Source: an uncultured Solirubrobacterales bacterium
Lineage (GTDB): Bacteria; Actinomycetota; Thermoleophilia; Solirubrobacterales; Solirubrobacteraceae
DNA length: 64,000 bases
Reading direction: 5' to 3'
NCBI GenBank assembly: GCA_963767695.1
Contig: CAVYFE010000010.1
Location: 71,872 to 135,871 of the forward strand
Shown: positions 23,186-43,735 of the stretch, piece after piece
Layout: each line of letters opens with the position of its first letter
How positions within the stretch are numbered: position 1 is the first letter of the stretch
Program-made: the position numbers and the translations under genes
Notes under the pieces: model-generated
Told to the model about the DNA's origin: nothing
The model's input: the letters and a program-made list of their open reading frames with translations, nothing else
Databases searched by the model: none

Positions 23186-23956
23186 CTAGGCCGCGGTCCG
23201 GGCCTCGATCAGGCTGGCGATGGATAGACGCCGCCGGCACATCTCCACAGCCTCCTGCCGGGTTGCCGCGGGCACGGCGTCGCCCCATGCCGCCGCCGCC
23301 TCGTCCGCACGGTCCAGCACGTTGCTAACGGAGTCCGCGGATCCATCCTCGATCAGGCAGCGCAGGCCGAAGCCGACGTGCCAGCGCTCGTCGAGCTCGA
23401 TGTGCCCCACGCCCTCGCGAATTCCGGGCAGGGCACCGTCGGCCAGATCGTCGAGCAACGCACGTTGGCCGGCGGCGAAGACGGCCCCCTCGAGCACCAT
23501 GTGGTAGAGGGCGACGCCGTCGACCAGTCGGGTACGGCCCGCCGCGAGCTCGGCGGCCATTGCAGGCAGCCGCATCTCGAAGAGCTCGAGCAGGGCGGCC
23601 GGGACGTGCGCCCGGGCCGCGGCGCGCCGCTCGGCCGGGGCATCTCCGGGCAGCCCGAGCACGTCGGCAGCGATGCGGTCGAAGAGCAGCGCGTGGCGGT
23701 CCTCGTCGCGACGCTGGAGAAAGAAGACCCACATCAGCATGCTGTCTACGGTCTCGGTCACATCGGCGAACGGCAAGAGGTGCTCAGCGACGGCGTCCTC
23801 GGCCACGCGGAAGCCGGCGAGAAGCGTGGTGAGGCGGCGACGGCGCTCGACCGGGAGCCCGGGCCACGCCCGAGCGTCGGGGGCGAGGTCGATAGCCGCC
23901 GCATCCCAATGCAGACGAGCCACGATCTGGGAGTACGTCGCGAGCCTCGGGAACAT
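23186..23956 (-). CDS. R2-like ligand-binding oxidase (R2lox, ferritin-like dimetal protein)
   Basis: AEDAV, DEDRH, YHMVLEG, DERWH. Confidence 0.8.
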   Translation of the reverse strand: MFPRLATYSQIVARLHWDAAAIDLAPDARAWPGLPVERRRRLTTLLAGFRVAEDAVAEHLLPFADVTETVDSMLMWVFFLQRRDEDRHALLFDRIAADVLGLPGDAPAERRAAARAHVPAALLELFEMRLPAMAAELAAGRTRLVDGVALYHMVLEGAVFAAGQRALLDDLADGALPGIREGVGHIELDERWHVGFGLRCLIEDGSADSVSNVLDRADEAAAAWGDAVPAATRQEAVEMCRRRLSIASLIEARTAA

Positions 23957-24121
23957 CAACAGCTCAGAGCGGTCAGCGGTGGGAACGCTGAGACCACCTG
24001 GTCCCATGTTGGGATGTGCTTTCACGACCTACGAGGTTGGGATCGGTTGCGCCATCAAAGATAGCTTGCCGCATAGGCTTGGGAACCGGCGACGACGGAC
24101 GCAACCGACCGCGCACATCGC

Positions 24122-26203: not shown

Positions 26204-27129
26204 AGCTCGACCTCGAGGCCATCGTAGGCGACTTCGATCCCTGCGCGGGTGACCGCCCCCCGCTCGGGAGAGTCATCGAGCAGGATCGGGTTGGTGTTGT
26301 TGATGTGGACGAGCGCCTTGCGCGGTCGCTCCAGCCGCGCGAGCGCCTCGAGCGTCCCGCCGGGACCTGAGAGCGGCACGTGGCCCATCTCCCGCGCGCT
26401 CCGAGGCGAGATGCCGAGTCGGGCGAGCTCATCGTCGCGCCAAAAAGTGCCGTCGACGAGCACGAGATCGCTGGTGGCGAACCGGGAGAGCACGTCGTTG
26501 TCCAATCGGGCGAGACCGGGGGCGTAGGTCACGACCCCTCCACCCGCGCGGTCCCGAAAGACAAACCCGCTCGCGCCGAGCTCCAGATCCGACCCGTCCT
26601 GATAGCGCGGAGGGTCACCGCCCACGTCGAACGCCTCGACGCTGAGGCTCGACCCCTCGAGCGGACTGGGCAGCTCTGGTTCCAGCCTCCGCCACTCGGC
26701 GCCGCAATAACGGTCGAGAATCGGCAGCACGGGATATCCCTGCCTCAGCGCGCGCTCGACACCCTCGTCGCCGTATACGCGCACCGGCGTCGCCGACTCC
26801 CGCAGGAGCAGAAGCCCTGCCGTGTGATCGATCTCCGCGTCAGTCAGGAGCACGCCGGCGATCGGTGACGCGCGGACACCGTCGACCCGCGGAGGCACGA
26901 TCGCTGCAAGCTGCTGGCGCGCGTCCGGCGAGGCGTTTACGAGAAACCAGGGTCCCTCGCCGCCACGGATCGCCAGCGACGACTGCGTACGGGGTCGCGC
27001 ACGCGCACCCGCGCGCGCAGCCTCACATGTCGGGCAATGGCAATTCCACTGCGGAAACCCTCCGCCAGCGGCCGAGCCGAGAATCAGAACGCGCACGCGG
27101 CAGAAGAACCGGTTCGTAGCCCCAGGCAA
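26200..27129 (-). CDS. pqqB: PQQ biosynthesis hydroxylase (start may be ~27096)
   Basis: LGSAAGGGFPQWNC, RTQSSLAI, LTDAEIDH, VHINNTNP. Confidence 0.96.
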   Translation of the reverse strand: MPGATNRFFCRVRVLILGSAAGGGFPQWNCHCPTCEAARAGARARPRTQSSLAIRGGEGPWFLVNASPDARQQLAAIVPPRVDGVRASPIAGVLLTDAEIDHTAGLLLLRESATPVRVYGDEGVERALRQGYPVLPILDRYCGAEWRRLEPELPSPLEGSSLSVEAFDVGGDPPRYQDGSDLELGASGFVFRDRAGGGVVTYAPGLARLDNDVLSRFATSDLVLVDGTFWRDDELARLGISPRSAREMGHVPLSGPGGTLEALARLERPRKALVHINNTNPILLDDSPERGAVTRAGIEVAYDGLEVEL

Positions 27130-27158
27130 GCACCGGAGGCCACGCCGGCTTCAGCGTC

Positions 27159-27233
27159 CTACCGGTGGTACAGGTAGGAGGTGACCTCCGAGCACATCTC
27201 GATGAACTCAAACTCCGGCTTGGTCCACACCAT
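27159..27233 (-). CDS. pqqA: PQQ precursor peptide
   Basis: MVWTKPEFEFIEMCSEVTSYLYHR with the E-x3-Y core, directly upstream of pqqB. Confidence 0.93.
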   Translation of the reverse strand: MVWTKPEFEFIEMCSEVTSYLYHR

Positions 27234-27310
27234 AGGATGCCTCTCCCTCTTAGAGTTCAACGTCGCGGGCATCTTAGCGAACGACTGCAAGCAGAAGAAA
27301 GGGCCGCCAC

Positions 27311-28724
27311 ATGATGCGCGTCGAGGTAACCGCGGGCGACCCGGACACGAGCGGCGCCGACCTCGTCGCAGTCGCGGCGGGAGCGCGGGCCTCGGAGCTC
27401 GGCGCCCCCGAGCGCGCGATCGCGGACGCCGATCCGGTCGCGATCGTCTATCAGCACTCGGCCCACCCCGGCGCCCCGCTCGCTGTCGTCGCGCTCGAGC
27501 CGGACGCCGAGGGACTGCGGACGGCTGCGGCGCGGGCAGTGCGCGCGTGCAGGGGTGGCGGGACTGTCGTGTGGGCGCTCGATGCATCCCTGCCGGTCAC
27601 CGTCGAGGAGCAGGTGCGGGCGCTGAGCGAAGGCGCCGTCATCGGCGGCTACGACGGCCGGCGCTGGCGAAGCGGCGAGCGGCCGCGCAGCGTGGAGCGC
27701 TTCGTGATCAGCGGCTGCGGCGGGGAGCTCGCACCCGTGGCCGATCGCGCCGCGCTCGTCGCGCGCTGGACGAACACCGCTCGCGAGCTCGTCGACGCCC
27801 CACCCAACGTGATGTCACCGACCGCGCTCGCGGACCGGGCGGCGGAGTTTGCGGGGCTCGCGGAGCGAGAGCATCGACCCCGCCGAGGCGGGGCTTGGCG
27901 CGCTCGCCGCGGTCGGCGCGAGCAGCCCGGCCGCGCCGCTGCTCCTGGTCCTCCGGCACGAGTCACCCGACGCGCAGGATGCACCGCGGCTGGCGCTCGT
28001 CGGCAAGGCTGTCACGTTCGATACGGGGGGCTACTTCCTCAAGTCGCAGACGGACATCGTCCGCCAGAAGGCCGATATGGCGGGCGGCGCGGCGGTCGTG
28101 GCAGCGCTCGGCGCGATCGCCGAGCTGGGGCTCCCGCTGGCGGTCACCGGTGTCGTACCGGCCTGCGAGAACATGCTCAGCGGCAGCGCAATGCGTCCGA
28201 CCGACGTCATCCCGACAGCTTCCGGCCTCACCGTCGAAGTGACGAATCCTGACGCTGAGGGGCGTCTGATCCTGGCGGATGCCCTGTGGTACGCGCGCCG
28301 CGACGGCGCGACCCACCTCGTGGACTTAGCGACCCTGACAGGCGCGTTGCGCGCCGGCATGGGCGATCTCTACGCCGGCGTCTTCGCGACAGACGAATCG
28401 TGGCGCGACGCCGTCGTCGATGCGGGCAACGCAAGCGGCGATCTTGCCTGGCCGTGGCCGCTTCACCCGCGCTATCGACCACTGATCGACTCGACGGTGG
28501 CCGACCTGCGCAACACAGCCGGAAAGAGCTTCGGCTTCCCGATTGTCGCCGCGACGTTCTTGGCGCAGTTCGCTGGCCAGGGGCCGTGGGCACACGTCGA
28601 CATGCTGGGCCCCGCGCTGCTCGACGAGGACCGCGGCGACGCGTTCGGGCGCGGCGCGACTGGCTATGGCGTCCGCCTGCTGGTCGAGCTCGCGACGCGC
28701 CTGAGCGCCGCGGCGACAACGTGA
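27311..28724 (+). CDS. M17 leucyl aminopeptidase family (apparent frameshift ~27860)
   Basis: LVGKAVTFDTGG, KADMAGGA, ENMLSG, NPDAEGRLILAD, DLATLTGA. Confidence 0.88.
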
Positions 28725-28752
28725 GTGAATGCCCAGGCGTTACGCTGGCGCC

Positions 28753-29367
28753 ATGGATGTCGGAGGTCGCGATCCGCAAGCTGCGACCGCTATCACGCTC
28801 GGACGGGTCGTCGACGCCTCCAAGTTCGACTTCGCCGCCGCGGAGCGCGCCGCGCTGGAGTTGCTGCGCGCGATTGGCGCCGACGTCGCCTCTCCGGCTC
28901 TGCTCGAGACTCCGCGCCGGGTCGCCGCCTCCTTCGTCGAGCTGGTCACGCCCGCCGAGCTCGGCGCGACCTTATTTCCGAATGAAGGCTGCTACGACGA
29001 GCTCGTGGTGGTGCGCGATATCCCGTTCCACACGCTGTGCATGCATCACCTGCTGCCGTTCCACGGTTGTGCCCACGTCGGGTATCTGCCGGGAGAGTGC
29101 ATCATCGGGATATCGAAGCTCGCGCGCGTGGTCGAGGCGTTCGCCCGGGACCTGCAGCTGCAAGAGCGCCTGACGGTGCAGATCGCCGATTGGCTGGAGC
29201 AGGAGCTCGCGCCGCGGGGCGTGGGGGTGGTGCTCAGCGCGGAGCATATGTGCATGACGATCCGCGGCGTCCGCAAGCCGGGGGCTCGAACCGTCACCTC
29301 GGCGCTGCGCGGCTCACTGCGCGACGATGCGCGCACGCGCCAGGAGTTCCTCAGCCTTGTCGGCTGA
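28753..29367 (+). CDS. folE: GTP cyclohydrolase I (FolE type)
   Basis: ETPRRV, FHTLCMHHLLPF, ISKLAR, QLQERLT, AEHMCM. Confidence 0.95.
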   Translation: MDVGGRDPQAATAITLGRVVDASKFDFAAAERAALELLRAIGADVASPALLETPRRVAASFVELVTPAELGATLFPNEGCYDELVVVRDIPFHTLCMHHLLPFHGCAHVGYLPGECIIGISKLARVVEAFARDLQLQERLTVQIADWLEQELAPRGVGVVLSAEHMCMTIRGVRKPGARTVTSALRGSLRDDARTRQEFLSLVG

Positions 29368-29386
29368 AACCGGTGAGCAGAGACCG

Positions 29387-29944
29387 CTGATCGAGACCGT
29401 GGTGACCACGACCGGGAGCGACGGTGTCGTCAACTGCGGCGCGATGGGGGTGCGCTGGAGCGAGGAGGAGCTTGTCTTCTGGCCCTTCGAGGCCACGCGC
29501 ACATTGCGGAACCTGCGCCTTCGAGGCGAGGCGGTCGTGCATCTCACCGACGATGTGCTCCTGTTTGTGCGGGCCGCGCTGGGTCATCCACGCCCCGCTA
29601 TGCGCGCCGCGAGCGCGATCGGCGGCTCGGTGATCGAGGAGGCGAACTCCTGGCGGGAGGTAGTCGTGACCGAAATCACGCCCTGCGAGGGTGGGCTGGC
29701 TCGCTCCCGGGTGCGTGCGCGGGTCGTTGCGACCGGCACAGGCACGCGGCAGCCACTCGGCCTGTGCCGCGCCCGGCACGCCGCCGTCGAAGCGTCGATC
29801 TTCGCCAGCCGGATTAAATGGCTCGGCGCCGAGCGCGTCCAGACGGAACTCCACCGCCTTCAGGAGCTGGTGGACAAGACCGGCGGACCCCGCGAGCATG
29901 CGGCGATGGAGTACGTGCGACGCTACGTCGTCGAGCGAACGTGA
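29387..29944 (+). CDS. DUF447-family protein (found in methanopterin clusters); start uncertain
   Basis: IETVVTT...NCGAMG...PFEATRTLRNL...HLTDDVLLF; CRARHAAVEASI. Confidence 0.75.
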   Translation: MIETVVTTTGSDGVVNCGAMGVRWSEEELVFWPFEATRTLRNLRLRGEAVVHLTDDVLLFVRAALGHPRPAMRAASAIGGSVIEEANSWREVVVTEITPCEGGLARSRVRARVVATGTGTRQPLGLCRARHAAVEASIFASRIKWLGAERVQTELHRLQELVDKTGGPREHAAMEYVRRYVVERT

Positions 29945-30906
29945 CCGAGATCGTGGTCACCGCGCCGGCGCGGCTGCATTTCGGAATGCTCGATCCGGCG
30001 GGCCTTGGAGCGCGCCGCTTCGGGGGCTTTGGCGTGGGGGTCGAGTCTCCGCGAGTGGTCGTGGCGGTCAGGCGCCGGTCCGGGGACGCGGTCAGCGTGT
30101 CCGGATCAGAGCCCGAGCGTGCCACGACGTTCGCTCGCCAGGCGCGAAGGGCATTCGGGCTCAGCGGGGGCGTGGAGGTGAACGTGCGCGAGGCGATCCC
30201 GCCACACGTCGGGCTCGGGTCGGGCACCAAGCTGGGCCTGGCGATCGCGCGCGGGCTAGCCGAGCTCGCGGGCATCTCCGCGGGCCCGGAGCAGCTGACC
30301 GAGGCGAGCGGGCGTGGGGCGCGATCCAGCGTCGGCTGTTGGACGTTTGCCGCCCCGGGACTCGTGGTCGAGGCCGGCGTCCGCGACGGGGACTACATCA
30401 GCCCCGTGGTGGCCCGGTACCCCATGCCTGAGCGGTGGCGGTGCGTGCTCGCGCTGCCCCTCGGGGTGGAGGGAGTCTCCGGGGACGCGGAGGAGCGCTT
30501 CTTCGGTCAGCTGCGCGAGTCGCCGGCCGCCGAGCCGCGCGTGCCCCGGCTGCTGCTGACCGCGCTGCTGCCCGGCCTGCTGAGAAGCGACATCGATCAG
30601 TTCGGCGTCGCGCTCGCCCAGATCCAGCGCGAGATGGGATCGATCTTCGCCGCCCAGCAGGGTGGCGTGTTTCACCCGCGCGCGGCTCCGCTGGTCGACG
30701 CGCTGCTGGCCTTGGGCGTCGGAGCGGTGGGACAGAGCTCGTGGGGCCCTTCGGTCTACGGGATCGTCGATGGCCCCCAGGCCGCCGCCGACGTGGCCGA
30801 CCGACTGCGTGTCGCGGCGGGCGCCGGCACTGAGGTCAGCGTGGTCGACTTCGATCGCCGGGGCGCGTGGATTGCCCGCCGCGGCTCGGGGCAGGCGGCG
30901 GCATGA
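29941..30906 (+). CDS. mptG: beta-RFAP synthase (GHMP family)
   Basis: TAPARLHFGMLD, HVGLGSGT, GQSSWGP. Confidence 0.92.
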   Translation: MTEIVVTAPARLHFGMLDPAGLGARRFGGFGVGVESPRVVVAVRRRSGDAVSVSGSEPERATTFARQARRAFGLSGGVEVNVREAIPPHVGLGSGTKLGLAIARGLAELAGISAGPEQLTEASGRGARSSVGCWTFAAPGLVVEAGVRDGDYISPVVARYPMPERWRCVLALPLGVEGVSGDAEERFFGQLRESPAAEPRVPRLLLTALLPGLLRSDIDQFGVALAQIQREMGSIFAAQQGGVFHPRAAPLVDALLALGVGAVGQSSWGPSVYGIVDGPQAAADVADRLRVAAGAGTEVSVVDFDRRGAWIARRGSGQAAA

Positions 30907-31628
30907 GGTTGCTGGTCAGCGTCGTCTCCGCGGAGGAGGCCCGGCGCGCACTCGCCGGTGGAGCGGACATCATCGATGTCAAGGATCCGGGCGAAGGGGC
31001 GCTCGGTGCCCCGTCGCCGGGCGTCCTGTCCGAGGTGGTGCGGGTGGTCGGCACGGCTGTCCCCGTGAGCGTCGCGCTGGGTGACCTGCCCAACCTCCCG
31101 CACACCGCGGCGCTGGCCGGGCGCGGCGCCGCGTTCAGCGGCGCCAGCTATGTCAAGGTCGGGCTACGCGGGGTGCGCGAGCTAGACGCCGCCGTGGCGC
31201 TGGTGGGCGCCGTGGCGGACGCGGTGGGACCACGGACCGCGGTGATTGCCGCAGCGTACGCGGACGCCGACGCGCTCGATCCTCCCGCTCTCGCTCCCGG
31301 GTGGCTGCCCGTGCTGGTGGACGGGGCGGGCATCTCCGGCGCACTCGTCGACACGTTCGTGAAGGACGGCCGTGGCCTGTACGGCTGGATGTCCGAGTGC
31401 GAACTGGCCGACCTCATCGCTCGCACGCGCAAGGCGGGCGCGAGCTTCGGCGTCGCCGGACAGCTGACCCGGGGCCAGCTGCGCCGAGTGGCGGCCGATG
31501 TCGTCGGTGTCCGCTCGGCGGTCTGTCGCGGTGGCGACCGAGCGGCCGAGCTCGACGCCGAGCTGGTGGCAGCCGCGGTCGCGGAGGTGCGCGCCCGCAA
31601 TGGGTGGGCGGGTCCTAATCCCGAGTGA
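30903..31628 (+). CDS. mfnB: (5-formylfuran-3-yl)methyl phosphate synthase (DUF556)
   Basis: LLVSV..AEEA..ALAGGADIIDVKDPGEGALGA, YVKVG, LVDTFVKDG, GVRSAVC. Confidence 0.9.
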   Translation: MRLLVSVVSAEEARRALAGGADIIDVKDPGEGALGAPSPGVLSEVVRVVGTAVPVSVALGDLPNLPHTAALAGRGAAFSGASYVKVGLRGVRELDAAVALVGAVADAVGPRTAVIAAAYADADALDPPALAPGWLPVLVDGAGISGALVDTFVKDGRGLYGWMSECELADLIARTRKAGASFGVAGQLTRGQLRRVAADVVGVRSAVCRGGDRAAELDAELVAAAVAEVRARNGWAGPNPE

Positions 31629-34914: not shown

Positions 34915-35862
34915 CGGGAGAACGAGCGCTCGAGCACCTCGGGAGCCAGCCCGCCTCCATGATGGGCCCGTCCGGACTCGGTGCTGGTGAGCGTGACCGC
35001 CGCGGGGCTGAACAGCATCGGATCGATGTCGTAGAAGTTCCAGTCGGCGGCGGCCAGCAGCTCCCCGAACGGGACGCCGAACGCCTCCGAGGCGGCGGAG
35101 GGGAGCCGCTGGGCCAGGTCGGCGACCTCCTCGTCCGCGGCCTCGATCCACAGGTGCACGGTCCCGCCGTACAGGATCGCGTCGTTGGTGCGTCCGATCG
35201 CCGCCGGGTCGTCGGCGGCCACCGGAGCGATGGGGCAACACCCCCAGCCGCCCAGTACCCGGGCCGGGTCAACGCCGAGCTCGTGCAGCTTGTGCAGCGC
35301 GGTCTCGACCACGCGGGCCGAGATCTGCACCGAGCCGCACAGGGACGCGGTTGGGGCGATCAGAAACGTAACCTCGGACGCCGGCACTCCGCAGCGCTGC
35401 GAGACCTTGTCGACGATCTCCGCCGGCGGGGCCTGCCGGGTCTCCAGGCAGAGGACCGCCCGCTCCGCCTCGCTCGCGCCAGGTCAGCTCCTCGAACAGG
35501 TCCTCCGCGCGTGCCAGGGCGCGCCCCGGGCCGCTGGCCATCGCGAAGAACTTCTCGTGCTCGAGCTTCCAGCCGGCGTACTGCGCGGCCAGGCACGCGG
35601 CCGCCGGCTCGTCCACGGCGACGCCGACGCCGGGCCAGGTTCGCTGGCCGACCGGTACCGCCAGGGGGTCGATCCGGCCCAGCCCACCCATGCAGGCGGC
35701 GGCGAAGCCCAGACCGGCCTGCACTCCGCCGCGCGCCTGAGCGCCGCAATCCACCAGGCGCGCGCCGGAGTCCAAGGTGCGGACCTCGATTCCCAGCGCG
35801 GCGGCGTCGGCGACCAGCGCATCCACCTGCGCCGCGGCACGTTCGTTCATCGACAGGCTCAT
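34911..35862 (-). CDS. mch: Methenyl-H4MPT cyclohydrolase (apparent +1 frameshift ~35470)
   Basis: ACMGGLG, CLAAQYAGW, AMASGPGRALA, APTASLCGSVQISARVVETALHK, GRTNDAILYGG, FYDIDPMLFSPA. Confidence 0.93.
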
Positions 35863-42972: not shown

Positions 42973-43735
42973 TTGACCGCGCAGACCGGAGAGTCGCCGC
43001 TCGCCGGTCTGCGCACAGTCGTCACCGGAGCCAGCTCCGGGATCGGGAGGGCGATCGCCGTCGCTTTCGCGGGCGCTGGCGCTCGCGTCGGCATCGGCTT
43101 CTGGCGCTCGTCGGGGGCCGCGCAAGCCCTGGCGAGCGAGCTCGGTCCCGTCCATCCCCTGCTGCGAGCGGACCTCAGCACGCTCGACGGCTGCACGTCG
43201 ATTGTGAGGCAGGCATTCGCCGCGCTGCGGCAACGTCGACGTCTGGGTCAACAATGCCGGCGCCGACGTGCTCACAGGCGATGCCGGCCGATGGCCGGCC
43301 GAGCGCAAGCTGCAGGCGTTGCTCGAGCTCGACCTCAAGGCGACGATCCGCTGCTCGCGGCTGGTCGCCGCCCAGATGCGGCCCGGAGGCTGCATCCTCA
43401 ACCTCGGCTGGGACCACGCCACCATCGACGGGATGGCGGGCGACGACCCCGAGCTGTTCGCCGGCGTCAAGGCTGGGGTGCTCGGCTTCTCCAAGTCGTT
43501 CGCGCGCTCGGTCGCACCCGACGTGCGCGTCAACGTGCTGTGCCCGGGCTGGATCGAGACCGCATACGGGGAGGACGTGGACCGCGACTTCTACGCCGAG
43601 ATCGCGGCGAAGACGCCGCTTCGCCGCTGGGGCCAGCCGCAGGACGTGGCGGGCGCCGCGGTCTGGCTGGCCTCGCCGGCCGCCGCCTTCGTCACCGGCC
43701 AGGCGGTCAATGTCAACGGCGGCGCAGTTGGCTGA
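42973..43735 (+). CDS. Atypical SDR oxidoreductase (apparent frameshift ~43230)
   Basis: TGASSGIG, VNNAGAD, F-A-G-V-K in place of YxxxK, VRVNVLCPGWI, TPLRRWG. Confidence 0.85.

Follow-up and report, generated by a model that had tools for sequence, protein, structure and literature searches.

In PQQ biosynthesis, the step understood with least certainty is the excision of the cross-linked Glu-Tyr unit from PqqA, and in many pqq clusters no peptidase has been assigned. The M16 enzymes PqqF/PqqG (TIGR02110, COG0612), which are encoded in or beside pqq clusters, have been assigned this excision (PMC10906245, PMC12731061), and the known pqq-linked peptidases comprise PqqF/PqqG and PqqL of family M16, PqqM/PqqH of family S9, TldD, and Pap of Devosia from family S33 (PMC10531626, PMC11331793). 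None of the pqq-linked peptidases listed in the latter two papers is of the M17 type, and a full-text literature search for M17 or leucyl aminopeptidases together with PQQ found nothing. The DNA analysed here, a stretch of 64,000 nucleotides from an uncultured Solirubrobacterales bacterium that is referred to below as the window, contains a pqqABCDE cluster and, divergent from it, an M17 peptidase gene.

The initial annotation had described the M17 gene as starting 77 bp from pqqA in a cluster that lacks pqqF/G, as retaining the metal ligands of its family and as heading a run of cofactor genes, and each of these points held when the locus was re-read (Table 1). The start codon of the M17 gene at 27311 (+) lies opposite that of pqqA at 27233 (-). 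The pqqA gene codes for the E-x3-Y arrangement of the cross-link pair, Glu16 and Tyr20, after 15 leader residues, as read from the sequence. No M16 gene was found among the annotated genes of the window, and a true PqqF is absent from the genome, in which the top TIGR02110 matches are two generic M16 genes with scores of 66 and 46 bits (cut-off 320). On the other side, a gap of only 4 nt separates the M17 stop codon from the ATG of folE, which is followed by genes for a DUF447 protein, beta-RFAP synthase and MfnB, and the M17 gene and this block are probably expressed as one transcript. Farther downstream are genes for an MfnE-like kinase, a HisA/F relative, mch (methenyl-H4MPT cyclohydrolase), a DUF6513 protein with a pterin-binding domain and a DUF1464 protein, and beyond MfnB the window also encodes a PQQ alcohol dehydrogenase with its MSMEG_3727-type partner. 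The gene setting is that of a methylotrophy-type island.

Table 1. Features of the pqqA/M17 locus, with positions in the window.
Feature	Position	Strand	Description
pqqE	25219-24122	-	Pfam Radical_SAM and SPASM
pqqD	about 25526-25206	-	Pfam PqqD
pqqC	26203-25466	-	Pfam TENA/PqqC; 323 bits to TIGR02111
pqqB	27129-26200	-	Pfam Lactamase_B_2
pqqA	27159..27233	-	24 codons and stop; sequence reading
Divergent pqqA/M17 intergenic region	27234..27310	.	77 bp; M17 ATG at 27311 opposite pqqA ATG
M17 N-terminal part	27311..27862	+	Frame of 27311
One extra base	27858..27866	+	Variable linker between the M17 domains; alignment with orthologues
M17 catalytic domain	27864..28724	+	Frame of 27843; stop codon 28722-28724 included
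Active-site block VGKAVTFDTGGYFLK...DIVRQKADM	27999..28079	+	Metal Lys, metal Asp, catalytic Lys, metal Asp; also holds the clade-specific Phe, Ile and Gln
NPDAEGR	28245..28265	+	Metal Asp, metal Glu, Arg; Pro where Thr is usual
HVDMLG	28593..28610	+	Leu instead of Ala in the usual DIAG motif
folE, DUF447, beta-RFAP synthase, MfnB	28729..31628	+	Downstream of M17

The catalytic part of the M17 protein scored 297 bits against PF00883 (cut-off 25), and the intact orthologue from a close relative, G184, scored 314 bits against the same model; solved leucyl aminopeptidases (LAPs) matched the catalytic region with 150–218 bits (E 1e-42 to 1e-63). The window translation contains the motifs VGK..FDTGG..LK, KADM and NPDAEGR. 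All the seven catalytic and metal-binding residues, K230, D235, K242, D253, D312, E314 and R316, which correspond at a constant offset of 20 to K250, D255, K262, D273, D332, E334 and R336 of bovine LAP, are present in it and are invariant across 66 members of the pqq-linked clade described below. When these 66 members were compared with 121 other M17 representatives, the residues around this core were found to differ. A Met of the substrate pocket, kept in 97% of the other representatives, is replaced by Gln in 100% of the clade, and the Pro of NPDAEGR occurs in 98% of the clade where 98% of the others have Thr (NTDAEGR). Further clade-specific changes are a second Met to Ile, Ser to Phe two residues ahead of the catalytic Lys, Ala to Leu in the DIAG motif, and Val to Arg together with Leu to Met in the region of the substrate-binding loop. 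Counted at the constant offset of the catalytic residues, the position of the Gln is that of Met270 in the bovine enzyme and of Met396 in PfA-M17, and the Leu corresponds to bovine Ala451 as mapped by motif and not by structure. Published descriptions place bovine Met270 and Ala451 in the lining of the hydrophobic S1 pocket (PMC8151835, PMC9470162). The full residue signature was present in all the 80 metagenome relatives and in none of the non-linked M17 proteins checked. An altered pocket combined with retained catalytic chemistry is indicative of an enzyme that is active and has changed its substrate preference.

The N-terminal part is 67–81% identical to the N-terminal parts of most intact orthologues, and the catalytic domain is 83–92% identical to orthologues. 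The M17 N-terminal domain model PF02789 did not match either the window protein or the G184 orthologue, although it matched clade members P0005 and P0012 and, weakly, P0010. In the window, this part was matched weakly by the N-terminal region of NCBIfam models for leucyl aminopeptidases.

A separate housekeeping pepA had been named as the thing to look for, and a full-length copy was found on contig C21 of the same genome, scoring 370 bits to PF00883 and carrying the NTDAEGR and DIAG motifs. The pqq-linked protein is distinct from it. Its best NCBIfam equivalog model, NF002073 of the PRK00913 group, gave 305 bits for the catalytic part, which is below the cut-off of 432, and none of the curated NCBIfam models claims the clade. 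In a search of 1.8 billion representative proteins with the full-length G184 orthologue, the closest relatives were 52–69% identical and were followed by ordinary M17 proteins at 40–50%. A quick maximum-likelihood tree, built from 79 sequences, joined eleven pqq-linked M17 proteins, with identities down to 52%, in one clade on a stem of 0.4 with an SH-aLRT support of 100, and placed the pepA of this genome elsewhere. A scan of species genomes with P0010 returned generic M17 genes only, at 32–43% identity. Thus, the gene at 27311–28724 is a paralogue in a distinct M17 clade and not the housekeeping pepA.

The M17 gene of the window is split into two frames (those of 27311 and 27843) by the extra base in the linker between its domains. 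All the 25 aligned orthologues are one base shorter here and read straight through, as does that of G184, and among 66 long orthologous loci, 62 keep the M17 frame open over most of its length. Neither a homopolymer nor a slippery heptamer was found at 27858-27866. Programmed frameshifting was considered as a candidate and rejected as unlikely, since a slippery sequence is missing and each orthologue is read in a single frame.

The extra base could also be a real lesion, in which case the M17 gene would be a true pseudogene in a decaying methylotrophy island and would have no present function in this organism. When 72 kb of G184 was compared with the window, +1 insertions were found in three window genes, namely M17, mch near 35470 and an SDR gene near 43231, and in none of those of G184. 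The mch gene is split by its insertion (35400-35560, minus strand), so that only the C-terminal half at 34911-35387 matches Pfam MCH in one frame; the SDR gene lies at about 42973-43735, with its insertion in the region 43141-43321. With all three of these genes frameshifted the island may be decaying here, and the intact state of rpoB, rpoC, two dnaE-family polymerase genes, uvrA, gyrA and gyrB in the same genome agrees with damage to the island. However, the lesions are single-base insertions only, all of them in locally hypervariable stretches and none in a homopolymer, without deletions or stop codons, which fits better with consensus error in a mixed population. Three insertions in about 16 kb do not differ significantly from none in about 23 kb (P about 0.07), and comparable breaks were noticed in other metagenome-assembled genomes (MAGs) of the group, in the M17 gene of G032 and in pqqB of G155. 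The changes in the M17 gene along the window lineage, 39–55 synonymous against 16–27 non-synonymous, resemble those of the intact sister genes without an excess of non-synonymous change, and therefore gave no sign of long-term decay or of relaxed selection. Among public contigs from three soil runs aligned to 27100-28800, none spans 27851-28007, and one short-read contig ends 10–15 nt before the site of the extra base, which also speaks against a true lesion. Genome-wide frameshift heuristics based on GC3 and codon log-odds recovered none of the three known sites and were discarded. Taken together, a consensus or assembly error is moderately favoured as the source of the extra base, and the pseudogene is given somewhat less than an even chance.

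In one MAG, the locus (L069:4854-5979) has a truncated pqqB and an M17 N-terminal part split into three frames, and no pqqC-E was found anywhere in its genome. This represents either joint decay or a noisy assembly.

The conservation of the linkage to pqq had been raised as a check on the proposed function, and it was found to be extensive. The clade M17 gene occurs in 80 species-level genomes with 83–92% identity, and in all the 78 informative GTDB species loci among them it is adjacent to and divergent from pqqA. A set of 80 soil metagenome contigs gave 68 informative M17 starts, of which 61 face pqqA and six face pqqB, so that 67 of 68 adjoin a pqq gene; the six pqqB-facing starts belong to a divergent subclade with split pqq clusters. 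By comparison, folE lies directly downstream of M17 in only 49 of the 78 related loci, and in three loci without it that were checked (L015, L022 and L100) the downstream gene encodes a PQQ dehydrogenase, with or without the MSMEG_3727-type partner. Most of the loci are kin within the Solirubrobacterales, so the raw counts overstate the number of independent events, and the rearranged layouts are therefore the better evidence.

At least five layouts retain the linkage. G603 lacks an M17 gene between pqqA-E and the folE operon, which face each other directly, and an intact M17 gene lies 20 kb away, divergent from a second pqqA that stands alone with it, without pqqB-E, and adjoining a PQQ dehydrogenase gene (the two pqqA regions are L057:5323-6867 and L195:7220-11077). 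The M17 gene thus moves with pqqA and not with the pterin/furan genes. Locus L189 has M17 between pqqB and pqqE, and it shares with L213–L217 a split cluster in which M17 is beside pqqB. The more distant members behave alike: the M17 gene of L190 (57% identical) faces pqqA, that of L200, a relative of P0005, faces pqqA-E, and that of L103, the most distant member of the clade at 52%, lies 1.6 kb from pqqA-E with one gene between. No pterin genes adjoin M17 in L102, L103, L190 or L200. A single clade member, L207 (L207:4721-9851), has the full signature and no pqq gene within 6 kb, its neighbours being genes for Spherulin4, a thiamine-binding protein, a GGDEF/EAL protein and Usp. The adjacency to pqq in 78/78 and 67/68 cases against 49/78 for folE, together with the G603 layout, argues for a link to pqq and not to pterin/furan synthesis, and the association of the M17 clade with PQQ is well supported.

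Two side observations were made in these loci. The gene between M17 and pqqA in L103 (9504-10961, minus strand) has about 483 codons and no Pfam match. One metagenome contig (L206:1695-10076) carries two clade M17 genes and two pqqB copies, with one M17 gene facing a lone pqqB and the other facing pqqA-B-C-D-E.

The occurrence of the clade is restricted. Among 201 sampled genomes of the order, pqqC was found in 14, of which four have the clade M17 gene, and a sample of 400 Actinomycetota genomes yielded the clade in no genus other than that of the window. A pqqABCDE cluster 80–87% identical to that of the window occurs without the clade M17 gene in nine genomes of another family and in G205; thus M17 is not universally needed, and the gene is accessory to pqq, being either dispensable or replaceable. 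The PqqA peptides of clusters with and without M17 showed no consistent difference. In G205 the M17-less pqq operon (L095:11444-15178) runs on the same strand into an ABC transporter pair and ends with a gene for an M19 dipeptidase of the membrane type; the genome of the window has a 65% identical M19 gene elsewhere (C3:64912-65937).

The most likely role for the M17 subfamily, to which we give about an even chance, is the trimming of PqqE-cross-linked PqqA. A specialised M17 (leucyl aminopeptidase) subfamily would have been recruited to PQQ biosynthesis as a second copy beside the housekeeping pepA, and as a cytoplasmic exopeptidase it would trim the cross-linked PqqA or its fragments, working from the N-terminal side. 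This would help to free the Glu-Tyr unit for its conversion to PQQ by PqqB/PqqC in organisms without PqqF/G. Enzymes of family M17 form hexamers in the cytosol and take residues off the N-terminus of short peptides, and Lys-Pro bonds are normally not cut by them. PqqA has a conserved bond of this kind near its start, at which a typical M17 enzyme should halt, and so another enzyme probably opens the leader. Acting stepwise from the N-terminus, the M17 enzyme could in principle cut after the cross-linked Glu, remove Val-Thr-Ser and cut after Tyr, and the resulting Glu-Tyr unit would pass to PqqB; a step immediately ahead of PqqB would agree with the subclade in which the gene is paired with pqqB. 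Both the PqqA-derived peptide as the substrate and the position of these cuts are predictions. The initial annotation had proposed that the enzyme trims the whole 15-residue leader, which is unlikely because the Lys-Pro bond resists M17 enzymes and related pqq clusters work without the gene. We consider it improbable that M17 alone excises the cross-linked Glu-Tyr by N-terminal stepping, with cuts after the cross-linked Glu, then after Val, Thr and Ser and then after Tyr, so that beyond the Lys-Pro block of the leader no endopeptidase would be required; the Gln/Leu pocket would then be an adaptation that accepts cross-linked residues, and the product would go to PqqB, the neighbour in one subclade.

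The restricted occurrence of the gene also bears on a scavenging role, in which M17, co-expressed with the highly expressed pqqA, would degrade the spent PqqA leader and tail or un-cross-linked PqqA for amino acids and not for PQQ. That related pqq clusters lack M17, that M17 enzymes are general exopeptidases, and that the closest partner of the gene is pqqA itself, even as a second copy apart from pqqB-E, are all in agreement with scavenging. Such a task would not call for an S1 pocket remodelled in the same way throughout the clade, though, and the genome already has a housekeeping pepA; moreover, one subclade pairs with pqqB instead of pqqA. Scavenging is therefore regarded as unlikely.

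The divergent arrangement allows for a regulatory function as well. Some M17 proteins bind DNA, as E. coli PepA does in acting at carAB, and a PepA-like hexamer could bind the divergent control region and set the transcription of pqqA. The short intergenic region common to two divergent genes is typical of a regulator and its target, and the M17 pairing follows the duplicated pqqA. On the other hand, the invariance of the seven catalytic and metal residues in 66 sequences and the specific pocket changes indicate selection on enzyme function. The pqqA-M17 gap varies in the relatives from about -4 to 225 bp (median 75 bp), and the only conserved elements in the aligned intergenic regions are the ribosome-binding site of pqqA and a weak TTAGAGT motif, with no conserved operator seen; the promoter and terminator scan of the control region was empty, with no sigma-70-like promoter at 27234..27310. 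One subclade, again, faces pqqB. A regulatory function is considered quite improbable.

Finally, a methanopterin/methylofuran role, in which the product of M17, at the head of the folE operon, would serve to edit the glutamate tails of these cofactors or another peptide-like part of them, as the initial annotation had offered for polyglutamate tails, accords with the pterin/furan genes directly downstream in the window and in 49 of 78 loci and is nevertheless very improbable, given that folE is not downstream in the other 29 (with a PQQ dehydrogenase module in the three checked), that the G603 folE operon faces pqqA without M17, that four distant members have no adjoining pterin genes, and that an aminopeptidase requires a free alpha-amino terminus, which gamma-linked glutamate tails do not have.

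The predicted trimming of PqqA by M17 can be set beside known systems. PqqF/PqqG have the same proposed role; these are HxxEH clam-shell endopeptidases of an unrelated fold, whereas the clade protein is a two-metal M17 exopeptidase. Pap, PqqM/PqqH and TldD are unrelated families that replace PqqF in particular lineages, a pattern which the M17 clade would match, and the S33 proline aminopeptidase Pap shows that an aminopeptidase can be a pqq-linked peptidase; being serine hydrolases or TldD, they belong to other catalytic classes than M17. Within the M17 family, E. coli PepA, bovine lens LAP and PfA-M17 share the domain order and the catalytic residues with the clade. The clade differs from them in having Gln for the S1 Met, Leu for the pocket Ala and NPDAEGR for NTDAEGR, and in its fixed pqq linkage and its status as a second copy. 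The M17 aminopeptidase BotP of the bottromycin gene cluster acts on the precursor N-terminus (PMC10885120), and like the clade M17 it is encoded with a ribosomal peptide product. BotP removes a single Met and the product is an antibiotic and not a cofactor. The PDB chain 5LHJ, which we take to be BotP, scored 198 bits like any other LAP, and thus has no specific relationship to the pqq-linked clade.

If the proposal is true, an M17 type would join the PqqF/G, PqqM/H, TldD and Pap types, and it would be the second M17 enzyme after BotP that matures a ribosomal peptide. The subfamily provides a concrete, clonable candidate, the Gln in place of the pocket Met and the NPDAEGR motif can be used for annotation, and the PQQ-making soil Actinomycetota of the Solirubrobacterales are a possible system for reconstituting the excision step.

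Just beyond pqqE, the window also contains an R2-like ligand-binding oxidase-type gene (23186-24025, minus strand) for a di-iron protein with weak family matches. About 39 of 80 related loci have such a gene on the pqqE side of the cluster, which may be a sign of an additional oxidative step connected with PQQ.
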